Of a stretch of DNA of 44,583 bases, positions 4,953-44,529 are shown in pieces. The notes beneath the pieces were generated by a model. The model was not told where the DNA came from. It saw only the letters and a program-made list of their open reading frames with translations, and did no database searches. Numbering within the stretch: the first letter of the stretch is position 1; every line of letters starts with the position of its first letter. The stretch is from Escherichia phage vB_EcoD_Over9000: sequence record NC_073079.1; one strand, given 5' to 3'. The translations under genes were made by a program, and so were the position numbers.

Positions 4953-5064
4953 CCCGTCCGCAGACCCCGACGAGGATTTGATGATTGACGTGAAAAATAT
5001 GGAATGCGGGGCGAAGCTAAGGGCGCAGGTGCTGGAGTTGCAGCAAATAATTAAGGGGCCGTAA
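4834..5064 (+). CDS. o-spanin (Rz1-like outer-membrane lipoprotein)
   Basis: Starts inside the Rz ORF in another frame at ATG 4834 (RBS GAGG at 4821); signal peptide with lipobox LSAC; Pro-rich mature part; about 76 aa. Confidence 0.6.
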   Translation: MLRALTALIVVLMLSACGSSNAPLMPLTESALRPPCKFDSPSADPDEDLMIDVKNMECGAKLRAQVLELQQIIKGP

Positions 5065-5078
5065 TGGCCCCTTTTTCG
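5053..5078. terminator. bidirectional intrinsic terminator
   Basis: GGGGCC-GTAAT-GGCCCC hairpin (5055-5071) followed by TTTTT; sits between convergent Rz1 (+) and the reverse-strand gene ending at 5079. Confidence 0.7.
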
Positions 5079-5843
5079 TTAGCGCGGAATACCGCAAATC
5101 TCGTTGAGAGTTTTCACATCCAGCGCCACCGCCGTGGATTTTGGCTTGTCCGGGTAAGGGATGAATTGCTCAACTTCAGGCCATGCCTTAATCAGCTTCT
5201 TATCGGTATTGTGCATGTCCAGCACACCGGTAACGGTCAACTTGAATGCGTCATACTTAGCACGCAACTCACGGCGGGCCTTGTCGTTACGGTCAAGGCG
5301 CTTGCAGAAGTCATGATCTGCCGGGAAATCCGCACGGCAGCGTGGCTTATAGATCGGCAGCGATTTTCCGTCCTCGTCCACTTCACACACTGAAGCCAAC
5401 ATAACTGTCTCGAACCCCGGAACGATATCGCCGAGATCAGGCGAGAGCTTATTCATATATTTCTCTTCCCAGTATCCGCGATGTACGCGGTATTGGCGAC
5501 CGTCACCGCTCAAGGACAAGATGCGAACATTGCCGCCTGCGTTGATTTCAAAGGTGGCGTCGTAAACGCTGCCGATACCCTTCGGGCGATCTGTGTCATA
5601 GCGATATGTTGCCTTGTTGGTGTATACGCTGACGCTGTACATCTGCGACTGGTCGTCGCGGATTGCCTTGATATGCTCGCGGAGCGCTGCGAACGTGCGA
5701 ATGCCTTCCGGCATACAGTCCAGCGTGATTGCGTACGCCAGGTCGCGAGAGTCCATCATGATTGTTTTGGCTTCGGTAGCGATTTCGTGGTCGCGCAGGA
5801 TGTTAGCCAGGATCTGATTTTTAATGTCTTTCGTCAGTCTCAT
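5079..5843 (-). CDS. hypothetical protein (reverse-strand insert in head module)
   Basis: 254 aa ORF on the opposite strand to all flanking structural genes; ends at a bidirectional terminator (5053-5078); no motif recognised by eye. Confidence 0.6.
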   Translation of the reverse strand: MRLTKDIKNQILANILRDHEIATEAKTIMMDSRDLAYAITLDCMPEGIRTFAALREHIKAIRDDQSQMYSVSVYTNKATYRYDTDRPKGIGSVYDATFEINAGGNVRILSLSGDGRQYRVHRGYWEEKYMNKLSPDLGDIVPGFETVMLASVCEVDEDGKSLPIYKPRCRADFPADHDFCKRLDRNDKARRELRAKYDAFKLTVTGVLDMHNTDKKLIKAWPEVEQFIPYPDKPKSTAVALDVKTLNEICGIPR

Positions 5844-5882
5844 TTTTATGTCCTCATTTTAGGGGCTTTCGCCCCGATTGGT

Positions 5883-6197
5883 TTAGTTGAATTTGATGTT
5901 GCCACCGGTGGAAGTTAAGCGGGCACATACAGCTTCAACGGCATCGACGCACATGAAATCGTTAAAGGCTTCGACCAGGGCGTTTATGAAAGATGCCGGA
6001 ACCAGGCCGCAAGCCGGATTATCGAATGTTGCGGAGTTGATCGCCGCTTTTGCCGCTTCAGAAGCATTCATGCTCTGGCACAGATTCAGCGCTTCCGCGT
6101 TACGCATTGCGTGAAAGGTAAAGGTATTCACTACGGTAGCTTTATTGAAACGGGCCATTGCGGCGTCTACTGGAGTTGCTACGGTCATGTTAGTCAT
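5883..6197 (-). CDS. hypothetical protein (first gene of reverse-strand insert operon)
   Basis: About 105 aa from ATG at 6197 with RBS AAGGAAAAC upstream (reverse strand); the longer ORF start at 6320 lacks an RBS; promoter-like region 6198-6300. Confidence 0.5.
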   Translation of the reverse strand: MTNMTVATPVDAAMARFNKATVVNTFTFHAMRNAEALNLCQSMNASEAAKAAINSATFDNPACGLVPASFINALVEAFNDFMCVDAVEAVCARLTSTGGNIKFN

Positions 6198-6337
6198 TTT
6201 GTTTTCCTTCATATCTCTGTTGGTGTGCAACCAACATACGCAATGCAAGCGAATTTTGCGATTATTTTTATCGCTGATAATATTAAGGCGTGAAGTCAAG
6301 CGGGTGGCCCGCTTTGCCACAATCCCAGGGGGATAGC

Positions 6338-11823: not shown

Positions 11824-12145
11824 TGAAGCGGGACAAGCGGGACGCCCCGTTTTGTCCCGCCCCTGTAAAACCGCATATCTAATCACTTTCATTGCATAAA
11901 CTCAAAGCGGGACAGGCGGGACGTCCCGTTTTGTCCCACCCCTGAAATGTGCATACCTATTCGAATTTCGTGCATAAAACAAACGGGACAGAAAGCGGGA
12001 CAAATGCGGGGCGGGACAAAGCGGGACAGCACCCCATCCCCACCAGTGCTGCCGCGGTTTTCAGCCGATCGGGACAGGCGGGACAAACCCCAGTCTTTCA
12101 GACTAGACGGGGGTCAACGGCCCCCCTCGTCTGAGACTGAATAAG
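11824..12145. repeat. iteron cluster (GCGGGACA boxes) plus conserved hairpin element, copy A
   Basis: About ten GCGGGAC(A/G) boxes, two ~80-bp tandem units (11826-11905, 11906-11985) each containing GCGGGAC-N10-GTCCC(G/A)C inverted repeats, then the ~50-bp element AGTCTTTCAGACTAGACGGGGGTCAACGGCCCCCCTCGTCTGAGACTGAATAA. Confidence 0.8.
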
Positions 12146-21374: not shown

Positions 21375-22048
21375 TGGCTAATTACGGCGCGTTGATTGAC
21401 TTACCAAACGGCAACCCGTTTATCACGCCAGAATCGACGCCGTTTTGTCTATTCCGCCGTGTGGTTGTTGGGTCTTCGGCTAACGGCACTGCGCAGTCGG
21501 CGGCTGCCGATATTAATTTGGGCGGTGACTACCCCGCAATAGCGTTTGTGAAAACTACGCACACCGCCCAGCCGACCGTCGTAGGGTCTTCTCGCGTTGG
21601 TAATGTGGTGAAGGTGAGCGCCAGCAATCCATTCGGGCGGGGCTTCACGATGACGGCTTACATCTTTGCTATATTCCCACAGTCCCTTCCGCGGTGGGGC
21701 TTCGCTATTTGGGATAAGACGGGGAAGCTAGTGCTTACTAATGAGAGTCGCGTACTAAGTGATTTAGTTACCGTCGGATCGCCAGGCGCTAACGGGGGGA
21801 TTAACATTGACCAGACGCTAAACGGCAGCTACGCCGTCGCTCCGGGCATATTGGGGTCTACGCTGATCCGGTTTTTTGTGCAGGGCCAGCCGCAAGTAAT
21901 ATCGGTAACGGCGTACACGGGGGCCAGATTTGATGGGTCGCGAACGCGTATATCGGCAGCGTCGGCGGGGAACGCCACGGGGAGTGTGGTGGGGTATACT
22001 AACAACGGCAACGCGATTATGGCGATTAACACCGCCAATTATGATTGA
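21374..22048 (+). CDS. hypothetical protein (tail-associated?)
   Basis: 224 aa Gly/Ser/Thr/Ala-rich ORF, start overlapping upstream stop; ends at a bidirectional terminator. Confidence 0.45.
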   Translation: MANYGALIDLPNGNPFITPESTPFCLFRRVVVGSSANGTAQSAAADINLGGDYPAIAFVKTTHTAQPTVVGSSRVGNVVKVSASNPFGRGFTMTAYIFAIFPQSLPRWGFAIWDKTGKLVLTNESRVLSDLVTVGSPGANGGINIDQTLNGSYAVAPGILGSTLIRFFVQGQPQVISVTAYTGARFDGSRTRISAASAGNATGSVVGYTNNGNAIMAINTANYD

Positions 22049-22286: not shown

Positions 22287-22366
22287 GGTATCATCTCCTG
22301 TATTTGGTCGAGTTTTAGTATCGCACCGCTCGACCAGGATTGCAACCAATTTAAGAGGATTCAGCT

Positions 22367-25341: not shown

Positions 25342-25403
25342 TATGTTTTCCTTTTTAGCGTGGGGCCATATTGCCCCGACGCGTTAACTATAGTGCAACC
25401 AAC

Positions 25404-27006: not shown

Positions 27007-27087
27007 CGTGTTGTCTCCAGGTATTAAAAAAGGCGTCCAAACCGGACACCCTTAAGATAATGCAACCAATATGATTATGCAACCAAT

Positions 27088-30004: not shown

Positions 30005-30283
30005 CTATGCGACCAATTCAGCAACCAATAAATCACAGTCGGCGATGTTGTCTATAACGCGAACGTCAGCGCCGCGGCGGGCCATCCGCTCATGTTCACG
30101 TACCTGGTGCGGCTTCGGTTTTCCTCCGGGGCGCTTCACTTCGACGAACACTATTTTGCCGTTGATGATAATAATCAGGTCGGGAGCACCTGCGCGCCCC
30201 TCCCATGCCAGTTTTCTGCAGAATCCGCCGACCTCTTTAACCCGTTTCATAAGGTGACGCTGCACCTTGCCTTCGGGTGTCAT
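30005..30283 (-). CDS. VRR-NUC domain nuclease
   Basis: 92 aa; GAPDLIIIINGKIVFVEVKRPGGKPKPHQ matches the VRR-NUC PD-(D/E)xK signature (PD...EVK...Q). Confidence 0.8.
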   Translation of the reverse strand: MTPEGKVQRHLMKRVKEVGGFCRKLAWEGRAGAPDLIIIINGKIVFVEVKRPGGKPKPHQVREHERMARRGADVRVIDNIADCDLLVAELVA

Positions 30284-33775: not shown

Positions 33776-33865
33776 TTTCCAATTCCTCATTTTCACATGT
33801 ATCGGGGTTATTGGAAGCCACCCCGTTCGGCTTGGTTGCAAATTTACTCGGTTGCGCCTAAGCGG

Positions 33866-36535: not shown

Positions 36536-36771
36536 GGTATATCTCCGATTGGTTAAGTTTAGGTGTCGGCAGTTAACTTCGTCGGTGGCCTTAACATATT
36601 GCCAGGTTACGCGTTCTCCCGTTCGGGTAGTGGACCTGGTTATATAATCACGGTTGGGAATCCTGACACTTCGATCCGGCCCCTGCGTTGCCCCTCTCCA
36701 GTTTGCGTCCTGCATCCTGTCGACGGGGTGAATATTAGATTGGTTGCATGTGGGGTGTCAACAACTAATTT

Positions 36772-36807
36772 CAAAAAAAAAGCGCCGAGGCAAAATGCGG
36801 CGGCGCT
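36772..36807 (-). terminator. orphan intrinsic terminator (reverse strand) in the early intergenic region
   Basis: GC-rich hairpin (36781-36807) followed on the reverse strand by nine T (A-run 36773-36781 on +); no reverse-strand ORF upstream of it. Confidence 0.5.
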
Positions 36808-36877
36808 AACCAATAAGAGACAATGAGACGGGAATTATTATTACACGCGTGCGCGCCCGTTTCAATATCCAAAGAAT

Positions 36878-36937: not shown

Positions 36938-37267
36938 ATGAATGTAAACGACGCAATCGAAATGTTAACGAAGACTGTTTGCAGTGAGACAAGCCGGTCA
37001 TGGGCATACACCGATGCCGTGGGGGCTGTGTTATTTGAAATCGAACGACTGCGGCTTACCGAAAAAGAATTGCGCGCCAGGCTGGAACTACTCAACGGTA
37101 CAGCAGCAAGCAAGCTGCAAAAACACAATGAAGAAATGGAAGAATACAAAAAGCAGGTTATCCGTTTGCGCGCCGAGGGTAAATCATGGGCGATGATTGC
37201 CGAGTTGACCGGAATTAATCAGAGCACAGTGCGCTCCTGGGTACGCAATAATAAAACTTCTAAGTAA
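36938..37267 (+). CDS. helix-turn-helix DNA-binding protein (putative transcriptional regulator)
   Basis: 109 aa; C-terminal GKSWAMIAELTGINQSTVRSWVRN is an HTH; promoter-like TTGACA-17-TAGTTT at 36878-36906; RBS GAGGG. Confidence 0.6.
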   Translation: MNVNDAIEMLTKTVCSETSRSWAYTDAVGAVLFEIERLRLTEKELRARLELLNGTAASKLQKHNEEMEEYKKQVIRLRAEGKSWAMIAELTGINQSTVRSWVRNNKTSK

Positions 37268-37277
37268 GGCCACGGCA

Positions 37278-39515
37278 ATGAGCTTGATTAAATTCGCTGT
37301 AACAAAACCCGCTAAAAAAGGCGAAAAAGCCAGGGCGGAAAACTTCCAGATGACGACCGATGAGTTTTTCGAATTTATCAAAGATGCGAAAGAAATCTCC
37401 TCGGTGCATATCAACAAGACGGAAGATAAAGCCGAGTACGCGCGCCGCAAGCGTAAGGCCGATGGCATCGTGGCGTATACCAGTGACGGATTGCGTCGTA
37501 AGACCAGTGCGGTGGACCGCTCGATCCTGTTCTTCGATATCGACCGTACCGACACCCGCACCTTACGCCGCTGCCGTAAGGCGTTCATCGACGCGGGACT
37601 GGAGCACGTCTTCCACACCACCACCGGCGACCGCCACCCGCTGAAGGGCGGCACGCGTTGCGCCCGTTTCCTGGTGCTCACTGACAAGCCTGTACCGGCT
37701 GAAGACCTGGGCCGCGTCCAGTATGCACTATTACACCAACTGGGTCTGTCAGATGTGGCCTTCGACGATTGCACGAAAGACACAAACCGCCTGATGTACC
37801 TGCCACACCAGCAGTCTGTTATTAAGTGCCACTACGGCAAGCGTGCCCGCGTCCGTCGTCTGCTTCGCCTGGCGGATAAGTTGGGCGTGGAGAAGGAGGA
37901 AGTACGCCGCGAGCTTACCCAGGGCGACGACGCAGTGGCAGACGGCATTCTGGACTGGTGCTTCCAGGCAGGATTCGAGGAGTTATCCTCCGGTCGCGGT
38001 TATGAAGTGCCGTGCCCGAACGAACATCTGCACAGCGGCGAAGGGTCGACGGCTATCATGGTCAAGGATGGCGAGATCCGTTTCAAGTGTATGCACACCG
38101 GCAACGAGTGTTGCTCGGAACTGAACAGACACCAGCACCTAGCACTACGTCTTATCGGAATCCCGGACCACCTGAACGTCGAACCGCACAACATGTCACG
38201 TAAGCAAATCGCCGCCATCCTGCCAGGTCTGGACGACGAGGAAGTGGAATCGTGCTATGCGCATATAGTTGATGCGGTCGGTGACGGCGACGAGTACGGC
38301 GTATGTACCGACGCGGACCTGGATAACGAACCGGTCGCACTGTTCAGTAAGCACGACCCGATAATCGAGGGGTTGATTAACTTTAAATCGACCTGGTACA
38401 TGGCTGGCGAGTCGAACATCGGTAAATCGTTCTACGTGCTTGGCCAAATGGGCGCGGTTGCCGCAGGTATTCCGTTCGGCGGTGCGAAGGTCGTCCAGTC
38501 GCATTGCTTCTATTTCGATGCGGAAGGTGGCGAAGCCTCCAACCAGCGTAAGGAAGCATTGCAGATCAAATATGAGCACGATCTCGACAAGCTGCACATT
38601 ATCGACCTGCAATCTCGCGGCTGGGATATCACCAGCAAATCCGGCTTGCGTGAAGTTATCAGCTTCATCAACCGCACCGCTAACGGCGAACCGGTTGGCC
38701 TGGTGGCGTTCGACTCACTCAACCAGACTGTTGCGCTGCGGTCCGCCGATGCAAAACCGTTCGACGAGAACAACGCCAGCGATATGGGTGAAGTGGTCAA
38801 AGCGCTGAAGGCCATTGCGGAAAATACAGGCGGCAGTGCGGGCGTCATCCACCACCCGGCTAAAGGTGCAAACGGCAGCAGATCCCCCCGCGGGTCCGGC
38901 GCGCTGCATGGTGCTGTCGATTCTGCGTTCTTCCTGGAGCAGCCTGACGACAACCAGCCAGGACAACTGAACCTGTATCACGAAAAGGCGCGTAATGGCA
39001 TCAAGCAAGCGCCGCGCGGCTTCGTCCTGCTCAAGTGCAAGGTTAAGGTTGATCTCCGCAAGTCCGAGGCGTTCGAAGCCCACCAGTCCACCAGCACTGG
39101 TCCTGACTTCGGCGATGTGGTTGCCGGTTGGGACGTAAAGCCAATCGCATCCACGCCACGCGACGAGACTCTTTACCTCGTACCGGTCGCCCTGGCGCCG
39201 TTCGCTATCGAACAGGCAAAGGCCGCTGGCAAAGCAGCAGTTAAGGAAGAGAACGCCGCAGGCCCGCGCAACGAAAAAGAGAAAGTGCTTTATGCGGCAC
39301 TGGAAAAACTGATGGAAGATAACCCGGACCATACCGGATTCAGTAAATCGGCAATTGTCCGCCAGGCGGGACTGGCGAAAGGTGGCACCTCGACGAAGGC
39401 AATCGACGATATGGTCGAGCGCGGAGTGTTAGGTTTTTATACCGATCCGCGCACCGGGGCCATCTATGGGTCGTCGAATATCGTCATCAAAACGAATATA
39501 CCCATCACGCTTTAA
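37278..39515 (+). CDS. DNA primase / replicative helicase (AAA_25 / DnaB-RepA-like ATPase with N-terminal primase-like domain)
   Basis: 745 aa; Walker A GESNIGKS and Walker B LVAFDSL in C-terminal half; Cys/His cluster CPNEHLH...CMHTGNECC in N-terminal half; followed by an ori-like repeat region. Confidence 0.75.
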   Translation: MSLIKFAVTKPAKKGEKARAENFQMTTDEFFEFIKDAKEISSVHINKTEDKAEYARRKRKADGIVAYTSDGLRRKTSAVDRSILFFDIDRTDTRTLRRCRKAFIDAGLEHVFHTTTGDRHPLKGGTRCARFLVLTDKPVPAEDLGRVQYALLHQLGLSDVAFDDCTKDTNRLMYLPHQQSVIKCHYGKRARVRRLLRLADKLGVEKEEVRRELTQGDDAVADGILDWCFQAGFEELSSGRGYEVPCPNEHLHSGEGSTAIMVKDGEIRFKCMHTGNECCSELNRHQHLALRLIGIPDHLNVEPHNMSRKQIAAILPGLDDEEVESCYAHIVDAVGDGDEYGVCTDADLDNEPVALFSKHDPIIEGLINFKSTWYMAGESNIGKSFYVLGQMGAVAAGIPFGGAKVVQSHCFYFDAEGGEASNQRKEALQIKYEHDLDKLHIIDLQSRGWDITSKSGLREVISFINRTANGEPVGLVAFDSLNQTVALRSADAKPFDENNASDMGEVVKALKAIAENTGGSAGVIHHPAKGANGSRSPRGSGALHGAVDSAFFLEQPDDNQPGQLNLYHEKARNGIKQAPRGFVLLKCKVKVDLRKSEAFEAHQSTSTGPDFGDVVAGWDVKPIASTPRDETLYLVPVALAPFAIEQAKAAGKAAVKEENAAGPRNEKEKVLYAALEKLMEDNPDHTGFSKSAIVRQAGLAKGGTSTKAIDDMVERGVLGFYTDPRTGAIYGSSNIVIKTNIPITL

Positions 39516-39534
39516 CGGCGACCGATGACGACCT

Positions 39535-39654
39535 GAAAGATTAAATTTTGCGCGCATTGGTTGCCGATATGGGAATCCCCATATCGCTAAAAGATTAAAT
39601 TTTGCGCGCATTGGTTGCCATTTTGAGTGTTTTTAGTCGGTCGCATTGGTTGCC
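39535..39654. repeat. direct repeats with intervening inverted repeat (ori-like region downstream of primase/helicase)
   Basis: 31-bp direct repeat (G/A)AAAGATTAAATTTTGCGCGCATTGGTTGCC at 39535-39565 and 39589-39619, partial third copy CGCATTGGTTGCC at 39642-39654; hairpin GATATGGG-AATC-CCCATATC between; AT-rich stretch follows. Confidence 0.7.
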
Positions 39655-39689
39655 GTGTAGTGTAAATATAATGAATAGTTATGCAGTTT

Positions 39690-39870
39690 TATTGCATAAA
39701 GTAAGCGGGACAAAAAGCGGGACAAACTTAGGGCGGGACAAAGCGGGACAGCACCCCCGTCCCGCCCCGGATGACGCGGCTTCCAGAGGAGCGGGACAGC
39801 GGGACAGCACCCCAGTCTTTCAGACTAGACGGGGGTCAGTGGCCCCCCTCGTCTGAGACTGAATAAAATC
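39690..39870. repeat. iteron cluster (GCGGGACA boxes) plus conserved hairpin element, copy B
   Basis: About 190 bp roughly 85-90 percent identical (by eye) to 11975-12145, including the same ~50-bp hairpin element with only loop changes (TCAACGG vs TCAGTGG). Confidence 0.8.
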
Positions 39871-40021
39871 CGGGATTGCAAAATACACGGCAGCATGACG
39901 CGAAGTGCGGTCGCGGATGAACTAGGCAACCAATGCGAGTTACATTATGCTGAGTGAAAAATGCGGTTTGCAGTCACAGCTGATAGCGATCAACTTTTTC
40001 ATGCGCGTGATTAATATTGGT

Positions 40022-40050
40022 TGCATCCAGCCGGGCACCCTGCTATATTG
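40022..40050 (+). promoter_or_regulatory. sigma70-like promoter upstream of gene 40078
   Basis: TTGCAT (40022-40027), 17-bp spacer, TATATT (40045-40050); followed by palindromic element TTGGTTGCACACCAA and RBS AGGAGGG. Confidence 0.5.
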
Positions 40051-40077
40051 GTTGCACACCAACAGGAGGGCGGAACA

Positions 40078-40256
40078 TGAAAACCGAAATGGTTAATAAG
40101 CGCGAAATCAAGATCGGCGATACGGTAGTACACAACGGGGAGCTTCGCACTGTGTGCAAGCGAGCGTTTAGCATCGATGAATTTATGGGCCTGCTACTTT
40201 GGGGCGACAGCTATCGTTTAGGGCATAAACTGGTTGAGAGGGTTACGGAACTATGA
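40078..40256 (+). CDS. small hypothetical protein
   Basis: 59 aa from ATG 40078 with strong RBS AGGAGGG and a sigma70-like promoter (40022-40050). Confidence 0.5.
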
Positions 40257-40588: not shown

Positions 40589-40861
40589 ATGGACCGCAGA
40601 CGAGCTAAACAGCTTTCGTGGCATATTCCACTGCATTGCATACGAATATGGGCTAAGAATGCGATTGATGGTGATTCTGTGTTCTGGAGCTATCGCGACG
40701 ATGTGAAGCCACTAACGCAGACTCGCTATCTGCACCAGTTCGCCAGGGAGCACGGATTCGCCGTCAAAACATCCTTGCAACCAATTGGCATCCGTATTAC
40801 ATTACGCCGGAAGCCCGCCGTTGAGCGGGTAGGCAAACACTGGAGACTGAGCAAATGTTGA
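40589..40861 (+). CDS. hypothetical protein
   Basis: 90 aa basic ORF. Confidence 0.45.
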   Translation: MDRRRAKQLSWHIPLHCIRIWAKNAIDGDSVFWSYRDDVKPLTQTRYLHQFAREHGFAVKTSLQPIGIRITLRRKPAVERVGKHWRLSKC

Positions 40862-43386: not shown

Positions 43387-44529
43387 ATGCACCCGCAAAC
43401 TAAAATTACCGATGAGCAATTGATCGCAGAATTGCAAGCAGGCACTACGTCGAAAGATATTGCTAAGAAATACGGGATTGCACTGCGCAATGTTTATATG
43501 CGCAAAGCCCGACTGGCGAAAAAGGGGATCGGGCACGGTAATGATGCCGTAATCCGTAAGCGCGTTGCCGACGGCTTCGGCGTGAAGCGCGTCTCGGCCC
43601 TGGTGCGTGGTAATGGCGAAGAGGTCATGTCGTGGGTTATCACCGAGCAGGACAAAGAGCGCCAACTAGAGGCAATGCGCGCCGTTGTCGAGGGGATGAA
43701 CAGCGAAATCACACCGGCAGCACCAGTAAGCGCCCCGCCGGTACCGATCCAGGCGCTTGACCTGCTCAACCTGTACACCGTGTCTGACTTCCACTTGGGA
43801 ATGCTGGCATGGGGCGAGGAGACTGGCGAAGACTGGGATATGGCAATCGCTGAAGATCTGTTCTACCGCTGGTTTGTCGAAGCATTCGCCCGCGCCCCGG
43901 ACGCGGGCACCGCCGTAATCAATATCCTCGGTGATATGGCGCACTTTGATAGCCTTGACGCAGTCACACCGGCAAGCGGTCACATCCTGGACGCGGATAC
44001 CCGATACCAGAAGTTGGTACGCTACATGATTCGCATGGTGCGCAACGTGGTGGAACTGGCGCTGCAAAAACACCACAAAATCAAACTGCTAATTGTCCAG
44101 GGCAATCATGACGAGTCTGGCATGATTTGGCTTGCGGAGATGTTCAATACTCTGTACGAGAACGAGCCGCGCGTCGATGTTGACACGTCACCGGACGTAT
44201 ACAAGATGGTGCAGCACGGTAAAACAACGCTGTTCTTCCACCACGGGCACAAAGCGCGCTTCGATGCTATCGAAACCGTCATGATTTCTAAATTCAGACA
44301 GGCTTTCGGGTCTAGCGAGTACAGCTACGCGCATGTCGGTCACTTGCACCACCAGAAGATTGTTGAATCCCGCAACATGATTGTTGAACAGCACCGGACC
44401 CTCGCAGCGAAAGACGCATATGCCAGCCGTGGTGGTTGGATGTCCGGTCGCAGTGCCAACGTAATCACCTATAGCGCCAACTACGGCGAAGTGGCGCGCT
44501 TAACCATTAGCCCGGAAATGTTGAAGTAA
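43387..44529 (+). CDS. HTH domain fused to calcineurin-like metallophosphoesterase (phosphatase or Mre11/SbcD-like nuclease)
   Basis: 380 aa; N-terminal HTH (TSKDIAKKYGIALRNVYMRKARL); phosphoesterase motifs SDFHLG, LGDMAHFD, QGNHDE, HHGH, HVGHLHH; last gene before the window end. Confidence 0.65.
   Translation: MHPQTKITDEQLIAELQAGTTSKDIAKKYGIALRNVYMRKARLAKKGIGHGNDAVIRKRVADGFGVKRVSALVRGNGEEVMSWVITEQDKERQLEAMRAVVEGMNSEITPAAPVSAPPVPIQALDLLNLYTVSDFHLGMLAWGEETGEDWDMAIAEDLFYRWFVEAFARAPDAGTAVINILGDMAHFDSLDAVTPASGHILDADTRYQKLVRYMIRMVRNVVELALQKHHKIKLLIVQGNHDESGMIWLAEMFNTLYENEPRVDVDTSPDVYKMVQHGKTTLFFHHGHKARFDAIETVMISKFRQAFGSSEYSYAHVGHLHHQKIVESRNMIVEQHRTLAAKDAYASRGGWMSGRSANVITYSANYGEVARLTISPEMLK

Follow-up and report, generated by a model that had tools for sequence, protein, structure and literature searches.

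The genome of Escherichia phage vB_EcoD_Over9000 (NC_073079.1) carries one 15-nt sequence, TTGGTTGCACACCAA, in front of two otherwise unrelated genes, which raises the question of whether the repeat is a regulatory element and, if so, of what kind. The stretch that we analysed (44,583 nt, hereafter the window) is a complete Dhillonvirus genome, that of an HK578-like virulent siphophage of E. coli; megablast matched about 157 GenBank records to it at 90–97% identity, and phage JLBYU60 is collinear with it. A sequence-only reading had proposed that the repeat is an operator, or a stem-loop in the 5′ untranslated region (UTR), that co-regulates the two genes. We found that the two copies share a special form of a short motif that is over-represented at promoter-like intergenic positions and conserved among Dhillonviruses, and that is best read as the operator of a phage regulator.

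The repeat and its conservation

The 15-mer occurs exactly twice in the window, at positions one base lower than those first given, and both copies face their downstream gene, as had been described:

6220–6234, minus strand: site A, a motif copy at the −10/+1 region plus an inverted arm, ACCAA; the identity between A and B covers 6217–6234
40048–40062, plus strand: site B, covering the last 2 nt of the −10 element and the predicted start site

Site A lies in a 140-bp gap between a minus-strand two-gene unit (5079–6197), which runs backwards within the head gene cluster, and the plus-strand scaffold gene. Site B is at the end of a 560-bp non-coding region 3′ of the helicase-primase gene (37278–39515), directly 5′ of gene 40077–40256, the start of which is at 40077 and not, as had been read, at 40078. 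At site A, 22 nt separate the 15-mer from the ATG (6197–6195); at site B, the distance is 14 nt. The exact identity between the sites extends further than first noted, to 18 nt (TTGGTTGCACACCAACAG) with TAT-N in front, and the description of the element as palindromic is justified only loosely, with arms of 5 bp (TTGGT/ACCAA) around a 5-nt centre, TGCAC.

By itself, the repetition of a 15-mer is near chance. When 100 genomes of the same size were simulated with a first-order Markov model, 95% contained a repeated 15-mer and 8% a repeated 18-mer, and the window holds several other repeated 15-mers that are evidently fortuitous. A mismatch-tolerant, genome-wide pattern search detected no third copy of TTGGTTGCACACCAA at up to three mismatches; in shuffles, two or more matches at this tolerance were obtained in 40 of 100 trials. 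The pair is nevertheless real, because ATTGGTTGCACACCAACA stands at both orthologous places throughout the genus and because the 15-mer belongs to an over-represented motif family. ATTGGTTGCACACCAACA was present at both sites in every Dhillonvirus examined, with the sole exception of EK99P-1, which differs by a single C-to-T change. Among the exact matches to it in IMG/VR, 24 of 26 were in Dhillonvirus contigs of 42–45 kb, mostly two per contig, and the remaining two were chance matches in coding DNA. The 18-mer scan was the informative one, the bare 15-mer having returned at least 120 contigs that were mostly unrelated and amount to chance noise.

A short motif at predicted promoters

In phage TheodorHerzl, site A contains the tandem TATTGGTTGCAC-TATATTGGTTGCACACCAAC, and ATTGGTTGCC recurs after the helicase gene, which led us to search for a core motif. 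Thirteen exact copies of ATTGGTTGC, the joint top 9-mer of the genome, were found in the window (0.30 expected), together with 17 copies of TTGGTTGC (1.3 expected), 13 of which are in intergenic DNA, although this makes up 6.9% of the genome (binomial p = 1e-12). Seven other Dhillonviruses carry 19–23 copies each, against about 1.35 expected, at the same places, and divergent relatives that were found through the helix-turn-helix (HTH) protein described below have 9 copies in 6.1 kb and 13 in 20 kb. Outside the genus, there is one copy in Kagunavirus RP180 and none in Jerseyvirus STP03. Other over-represented, GC-rich k-mers (CGCTGCCG and similar) were set aside; they lie in coding DNA on both strands and look compositional.

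A logo of 148 distinct sites reads A-TTGGTTGC-(A>C), with ten positions and no information beyond them; ATTGGTTGC is invariant, the position after GC is A in 59% of the copies and the next two are uninformative. As the information is confined to these ten positions, the motif is not symmetric, and a right arm like that of the palindrome is no general feature of it. To assess conservation, we aligned eight genomes at nine motif-bearing regions. Invariant columns accounted for 97 of 120 motif positions compared with 867 of 1567 neighbouring ones (Fisher p = 2e-8). At sites A and B and six other promoters, the hexamers and their 17–18 nt spacing are kept while the spacer sequence drifts, and variants of the −10 element retain the TAnnnT positions (A2 and T6). 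Since the block at A and B and the core motif are invariant while adjacent bases drift, selection on the sequence itself is required.

A strict promoter scanner called nothing at site A or B, so the promoters were classified by hand and with looser scripted scans. Fourteen of the 17 copies fall within −40 to +10 of a promoter-like site, compared with 31% of random positions, a background that makes the loose scan supportive only. Relative to the promoters, the copies occupy −39 to −32, −22 to −15 or −8 to −1, and inverted copies also occur. The 3′ end of the motif supplies a −35 hexamer, TTGCAx, at 22342, 27079, 30021 and 40016, while at 25395, 27062 and site A of relatives the motif fills the spacer up to the −10. 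Neighbouring copies are 12, 14, 17 or 31 bp apart. In total, the family comprises about 17 copies, spread over roughly ten predicted promoters and the surroundings of a putative origin. Apart from sites A and B, its members are the following:

22342–22350, minus strand: motif copy, −35 of the promoter (TTGCAA-17-GATACT) of a minus-strand lipoprotein/superinfection-exclusion-like gene
25395–25402, minus strand: motif copy that ends the spacer directly next to the −10 of TTGCAA-18-TATAGT; paired in inverted orientation with GCAACCAA in relatives
27062–27087, minus strand: two motif copies 17 bp apart, the upstream one forming the −35 TTGCAT and the downstream one filling the spacer to the −10 TATCTT
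30009–30029, minus strand: two motif copies 12 bp apart (TTGGTTGCT and TTGGTCGCA), promoter TTGCTG-17-TATAGT
33832–33855, plus strand: two copies (TTGGTTGC and TCGGTTGC), inverted over the spacer and +1 of the following leftward promoter
33869–33841, minus strand: conserved leftward promoter TTGACC-17-TAAATT
36739–36747, plus strand: motif copy, inverted in the 18-nt spacer of P_L
36761–36732, minus strand: early leftward promoter P_L, near-consensus TTGACA-18-TAATAT
39556, 39610 and 39645 (plus strand) and 39926 (minus strand), span 39556–39934: four CGCATTGGTTGCC copies bracketing a block of GCGGGACA iterons
40777–40785, minus strand: motif copy within coding sequence 40589–40861, inverted over a predicted rightward promoter, TTGCAA-17-TACATT (40775–40803)

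The four origin-flanking copies have no predicted promoter, and 14-nt perfect inverted arms are found among them.

The form shared by sites A and B

At site B, the sigma70-like promoter that had been proposed was recovered, with TTGCAT and TATATT separated by 17 nt and a −35 that matches the consensus at 3/6 positions. The 15-mer had been placed between the −10 and the ribosome-binding site; in fact it overlaps the last two bases of the −10. The promoter consists of:

40016–40026, plus strand: upstream motif copy ATTGGTTGCAT, whose TTGCAT (40021–40026) is the −35 of site B
40044–40049, plus strand: −10 TATATT (TAGATT in two genomes), behind a spacer that is 17 nt in 8 genomes and varies in sequence

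ATATTGGTTGCA occurs twice at this promoter, 31 bp apart. In the 15-mer block, a motif copy and a partial copy in inverted orientation overlap and have the central TGCA in common (ATTGGT-TGCA-C-ACCAAC); we refer to this as the bivalent form. A motif across −10/+1 that is followed by the conserved ACACCAACA was found only at sites A and B. Judged by the conserved −10, TATATT or TAGATT, transcription is predicted to begin at the A of ACACCAACA, which is position 40056 at site B.

A candidate operator family

Taken together, these results make it about an even chance that a phage regulator uses A-TTGGTTGC-(A/C) as its operator motif throughout the Dhillonviruses and that the 15-mer is a promoter-proximal copy of it. 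The idea of a shared operator thus remains plausible, in that the element is a conserved cis element and two units have its special form in common; it is not private to them, as the number of copies in the window shows. The occurrence of the motif at several positions and in both orientations argues for the operator of a protein rather than a recognition element of the polymerase, and the inverted copies in the near-consensus P_L and at TTGACC-17-TAAATT illustrate this independence of orientation. The annotations of the Dhillonvirus genomes compared list no RNA polymerase of phage origin.

A mechanism can be proposed on the inference that the predicted promoters are genuine, that the motif is bound by a protein, that binding represses transcription and that the protein is the one named below. 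At A and B the motif would lie across −10/+1 of a sigma70-type promoter, extended by the inverted ACCAA and by the transcript start ACACCAACA; site A would drive a minus-strand moron slot within the head genes, and site B the first rightward operon past the putative origin. A sequence-specific phage DNA-binding protein, for which the best candidate is a 109-aa HTH protein (36938–37267), would sit on the motifs. As this early protein builds up, it would fill the ATTGGTTGC sites on promoter cores, and a bound protein should keep RNA polymerase out, given that the motifs, whichever way they face, cover the −35, the spacer or −10/+1. The expected outcome would be a timed shut-off of the leftward early/middle units, served by P_L and the internal promoters at 33.8, 30.0, 27.1 and 25.4 kb, as well as of the site B operon and of two morons that face backwards within the late region, at 22.3 kb and at site A. 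Left unrepressed, transcription of these morons would run into that of the late rightward genes. The tightest binding would be at double and bivalent sites, and the same protein probably binds the four copies that flank the origin iterons.

The candidate binding protein

Two HTH proteins had been put forward as possible binders. The first remains a good candidate:

36938–37267, plus strand: candidate motif-binding protein, 109 aa, homologue of HK578 gp45, variable at the N-terminus, with a long helix, and invariant in the C-terminal HTH

Its gene is the first of the rightward early operon, which also contains the helicase-primase gene. The protein passes the Pfam thresholds for HTH_23, HTH_28 and Sigma70_r4_2, with sub-threshold matches to extracytoplasmic function (ECF) sigma region 4 and to the IS630 HTH. 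The C-terminal 60 residues are invariant throughout the family while the N-terminus varies, and protein, tblastn and locus searches found the family confined to motif-bearing, Dhillonvirus-like phages. A confident AlphaFold2 model (predicted local distance difference test score of 87) has a long helix followed by a small HTH like those of resolvases, LuxR and sigma region 4. The protein fits a domain that reads about 10 bp and is the best candidate for binding the motif. The family members found include no natural specificity variant that could serve for comparison.

The second protein, of 380 aa and metallophosphatase-like (43387–44529), has a marginal GerE-like N-terminus and is disfavoured; homologues with 75% identity, N-terminus included, are present in Kagunavirus and Jerseyvirus, which have 0–1 motif copies. 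Beyond generic HTH models, no repressor family was matched by the ten window proteins scanned against Pfam.

Several points weigh against an operator family read by this protein. The promoters are predictions, and the strict scanner missed both sites that define the question, with a −35 at site B that matches at only half of its positions. Neither mapped transcription starts nor binding data turned up for any Dhillonvirus in the searchable literature. What ties the HTH protein to the motif is co-occurrence only, and the helicase-primase and many genus-specific proteins co-occur with the motif equally. Sequence and fold searches of the PDB returned no significant relative of the protein (Foldseek E ≥ 0.66), and the GCGGGACA iterons are an alternative, competing target for it. 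Repression of site B by an accumulating early protein would leave the promoters of the downstream lysis genes unexplained. Finally, where motif and transcription run in the same direction, TTGCAx is the sole −35-like hexamer, so that an activating or recruiting role is possible.

This last point is the basis of the alternative that survives best, although we consider it unlikely: a positive promoter element, in which a phage factor at ATTGGTTGCA, at about −40 to −31, recruits or re-targets host RNA polymerase to middle-class promoters. On this view, for which T4 MotA boxes and lambda CII sites are the models, both copies of the 15-mer would belong to such a class. In four promoters, TTGCAx (3–4/6) is the only candidate −35 and stands 17 nt from a good −10, every motif copy at these promoters runs with transcription, and the candidate HTH scores as sigma-70 region 4, which reads −35 elements. 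However, the motif is also found in the spacer against the −10 and, in the 15-mer itself, across −10/+1, positions that are incompatible with activation, and it is inverted inside promoters that own a near-consensus −35 (TTGACA, TTGACC). The copies by the origin iterons, which lack a predicted promoter, are likewise not accounted for.

A more far-reaching version of the operator reading, which we hold only as an outside possibility, casts the 109-aa, sigma-region-4-like HTH protein as a master switch that reads ATTGGTTGC at about 20 sites and couples origin firing to the early-to-late switch. It might compete with or replace sigma70 region 4 at −35-like elements, so that all leftward units and the embedded morons would be shut or re-programmed, and the origin would be organised beside the helicase-primase gene. 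In this scheme, two cargo slots with readily exchanged genes would be guarded by the palindromic 15-mer sites, acting as bivalent operators of high affinity.

A possible role in replication

Another reading has a similarly low probability: the motif may primarily be a replication or origin-organising site bound by an initiator or a helicase-primase accessory protein, with the overlap with promoters secondary, as in the case of DnaA boxes, and giving autoregulation or transcription-replication coupling. Six copies lie in the 560 bp directly after the helicase-primase gene, and four of these bracket the GCGGGACA iterons. The HTH gene is co-transcribed with the helicase-primase gene, and HK578 gp45–gp46 have been treated as replication-initiation genes on genetic grounds (preprint 10.64898/2026.07.10.737580). 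In contrast, 11 of the 17 copies are far from the origin region, the intergenic ones among them at promoter cores, and a second iteron block (region A, 11826–12087) is without a motif copy in the window. A replication role is also compatible with the operator reading rather than exclusive of it.

The iterons themselves are abundant, with 16 copies of GCGGGACA in the window where about 2 are expected. Two 175-bp segments (11971–12144 and 39693–39866) are 85% identical, and both contain GCGGGACA iterons and a long hairpin (CAGTCTTTCAGACTAGACGGGGG...CCCCCCTCGTCTGAGACTG). One of them is oddly placed, between the tail-chaperone genes and the tape-measure gene, and the pair resembles a two-site origin such as P4 ori/crr. 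Both segments are annotated as repeat regions (regions A and B) in the GenBank record of SO-1 (GQ502199), which also describes the region after the helicase-primase gene, site B included, as direct, inverted and palindromic repeats. That annotation gives neither the ATTGGTTGC motif nor its genome-wide distribution or its link with promoters, and the likeness of regions A and B stems from the GCGGGACA iteron block, not from the ATTGGTTGC motif.

A 54-bp tandem duplication with one CGCATTGGTTGCC per unit was found at 39533–39619. It is present in the window, JLBYU60 and rolling, has a shorter second unit in LM40P1 and is absent from HK578, SO-1, TheodorHerzl and EK99P-1; with this patchy distribution, the number of origin-flanking motif copies varies within the genus.

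A possible RNA-level role

The alternative form of the original proposal, in which the 15-mer acts in RNA as a 5′-UTR stem-loop or as a conserved leader for the stability or translation of both mRNAs, is improbable. The hairpin is of 5 bp and −2.9 kcal/mol, no better than those of shuffled sequences (z about −0.3, range −0.05 to −0.8), no Rfam family matches anywhere in the window, and, since the conserved −10 places the start at ACACCAACA, the left arm TTGGT precedes +1 and would be absent from the transcript. At other gene starts, CACCAACA was not found again as a leader motif. What speaks for an RNA role is that ACACCAACA is kept at both sites, where both transcripts would begin with it, shortly before the Shine-Dalgarno sequence, and that the leader of site A is unusually unstructured (z = +1.6), which fits efficient initiation. 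The conserved first nine transcribed bases may have a role in promoter escape or translation.

Site A, its deletion and the cargo slots

At both sites, genomes lose their homology to one another as soon as the block ends, and they differ in the gene that comes first downstream. Depending on the genome, site A is followed by a pol III beta-like clamp gene, the Nmad5 gene, HK578 gp6 or, as here, a gene for a 104-aa protein. This break in homology, together with the variable first gene, indicates that sites A and B are fixed promoter-leader cassettes in front of cargo slots:

5079–6197, minus strand: moron cargo of site A, encoding the 104-aa protein (phrog_24635, 5883–6197) and a protein with an Nmad5 domain (5079–5843)
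5053–5073, both strands: bidirectional terminator-like hairpin closing the moron slot; HK578 annotates terminators at the equivalent place
40077–40256, plus strand: first gene after site B, 59 aa, phrog_3623; absent in many relatives, in which the leader joins the next gene

Site A has the properties of a moron, namely its own promoter and terminator, opposite orientation in the late operon and variable cargo, and the SO-1 record labels gp7 a possible moron (GQ502199). The product of 5079–5843 is a full-length match to Nmad5 (nucleotide modification associated domain 5; Pfam E = 1e-60) and could be a DNA-modification or anti-defence protein; in some relatives its gene sits directly behind the site A leader. 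At site B, the DNA of 40077–40256 has homologues of about 78–81% identity over 69–79 nt in many T1-like (Drexlerviridae) phages, so this is an accessory gene shared across families.

The sigma70-like promoter described for site B has, at site A of the window, at best a weak counterpart. Undeleted genomes have TTGCAW-18 nt-TATATT at this position. The window has lost 14 bp, exactly one motif copy, at the junction 6235–6242 relative to JLBYU60 and about 20 other genomes, which ruins the spacing between −35 and −10:

6233–6238, minus strand: −10-like TATGTT, made by the left flank of the deleted motif copy; TATATT in relatives
6243–6248, minus strand: orphaned −35 TTGCAT, now 4 nt from TATGTT

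No sigma70 architecture was recovered at site A of the window, where the best alternative −35, TCGCAA, matches at 3/6 positions, and the moron operon is probably weaker in this phage than in its relatives. JL1 (1640–1670) has the same kind of 14-bp deletion with different flanks, which match SSL-2009a; on this other background, the two deletions look like independent events. They may reflect selection for lower expression of the 104-aa gene or plain slippage between repeats. This phage and JL1 both carry the same 104-aa first gene, and each has one motif copy with broken spacing at site A, compared with two copies in JLBYU60 and SSL-2009a.

Promoter cassettes also differ at another locus. At 21950–21990 of LM40P1, corresponding to 22317–22350 of the window, the promoter of the lipoprotein gene is replaced by a double-motif cassette, TTGGTTGCAA-7 nt-TTGGTTGCAC-TATATT, from which it follows that whole promoter cassettes are exchanged between sites.

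Such exchanges bear on the possibility that the 15-mer has no regulatory role and is a recombination joint, a portable promoter-leader cassette or a microhomology for gene swaps, the likeness of A and B being kept by descent or gene conversion, with chance as the limiting case. The cassette swap in LM40P1 fits this, as do the end of homology right past the block, the different first genes and the two independent deletions between tandem copies, which imply that the repeats recombine or slip, and a 15-mer repeat alone would be expected by chance. We nevertheless regard this explanation as very improbable, because the block and the core motif are invariant throughout the genus while adjacent bases drift, and because chance fails for 13 exact 9-mers or for 13 of 17 TTGGTTGC 8-mers in intergenic DNA. 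A homing-endonuclease target and a pac or cos site were dropped, as position and copy pattern give them no support.

Comparison with known systems

The C1 operators of phage P1 are short, asymmetric and dispersed, overlap many promoter cores in either orientation and are in some cases bivalent. They are the closest functional analogue of the motif described here that we can name: both are asymmetric, present in many copies and in both orientations, and include overlapping inverted pairs, and the 15-mer has the P1-like bivalent form TTGGT-TGCA-C-ACCAA. The differences are that the motif has about 10 bp, ATTGGTTGC(A/C), compared with 17 bp for C1 (ATTGCTCTAATAAATTT), that its host phages are virulent and that the candidate binder, of 109 aa, is unrelated in sequence to C1. 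Dhillonviruses have no known immunity system.

As in T4 middle promoters and lambda CII-dependent promoters, a phage-specific sequence over the −35, TTGC included, is combined with a host-type −10 and marks a class of promoters. Unlike the MotA box, the motif has no fixed position or orientation, is not centred at −30 and has a different consensus; unlike the CII site, TTGC-N6-TTGC, it has its TTG repeats 4 bp apart within TTGGTTGC. In contrast to both, it also occurs in the spacer, at −10/+1, inverted, and in promoters with their own consensus −35. Among ten proteins of the window scanned against Pfam, no homologue of MotA, AsiA or CII was named, although no systematic search for them was made.

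The operator of E. coli CytR has the octamer GTTGCATT. It overlaps the core partly, but the whole octamer is not conserved and the invariant ATTG lies outside it, so a CytR site was rejected. The DnaA box, the NtrC site, the sigma54 −24/−12 element, the marbox and the CII site were also compared, and none of them fits the invariant ATTGGTTGC core.

The site A unit resembles the morons of lambdoid and HK97-like phages in being on the minus strand of the head cluster with its own promoter, a terminator (5053–5073) and variable cargo, which in close relatives comprises a pol III beta-like clamp, an Nmad5 protein or small uncharacterised proteins. It differs from them in that the promoter-leader is fixed and conserved in the genus, stays put while the cargo changes, is shared with site B and is tied to a genome-wide motif.

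Searches of the literature (Dhillonvirus promoters and transcriptome, HK578, SO-1 and the motif string) found no description of the motif, which appears to be undescribed although the type of element is ordinary, and no description of the Dhillonvirus transcription programme was found either. Dhillonviruses are among the E. coli phages most commonly isolated, with more than 150 genomes, and they feature in the BASEL collection, in work on anti-defence functions (Ksap1/Avs2, anti-Tmn, OLD) and in phage engineering. A single motif of 9–10 bp at nearly every predicted non-late promoter and at the origin flank offers a concrete, testable way into their transcription programme and into what a conserved orphan HTH protein does. 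Sites A and B are natural cargo slots, with a fixed promoter-leader and variable genes, and could suit the insertion of payloads. If the motif is only an ordinary operator family, the result would be a usable annotation and no conceptual advance.

Other sequence features

The minus strand at 36770–36864, directly upstream of P_L, has a strong promoter-like sequence, TTGAAA-17-AATAAT with a TG element, and about 55 nt further on a strong intrinsic terminator (AGCGCCGCCG...CGGCGCT and T9). This unit could give a short RNA or serve as an attenuator, and the short transcript would include a near-motif, ATTGGTTaGC. The E. coli Chi sequence, GCTGGTGG, has five copies on the plus strand of the window and one on the minus strand, compared with about 0.7 expected per strand.

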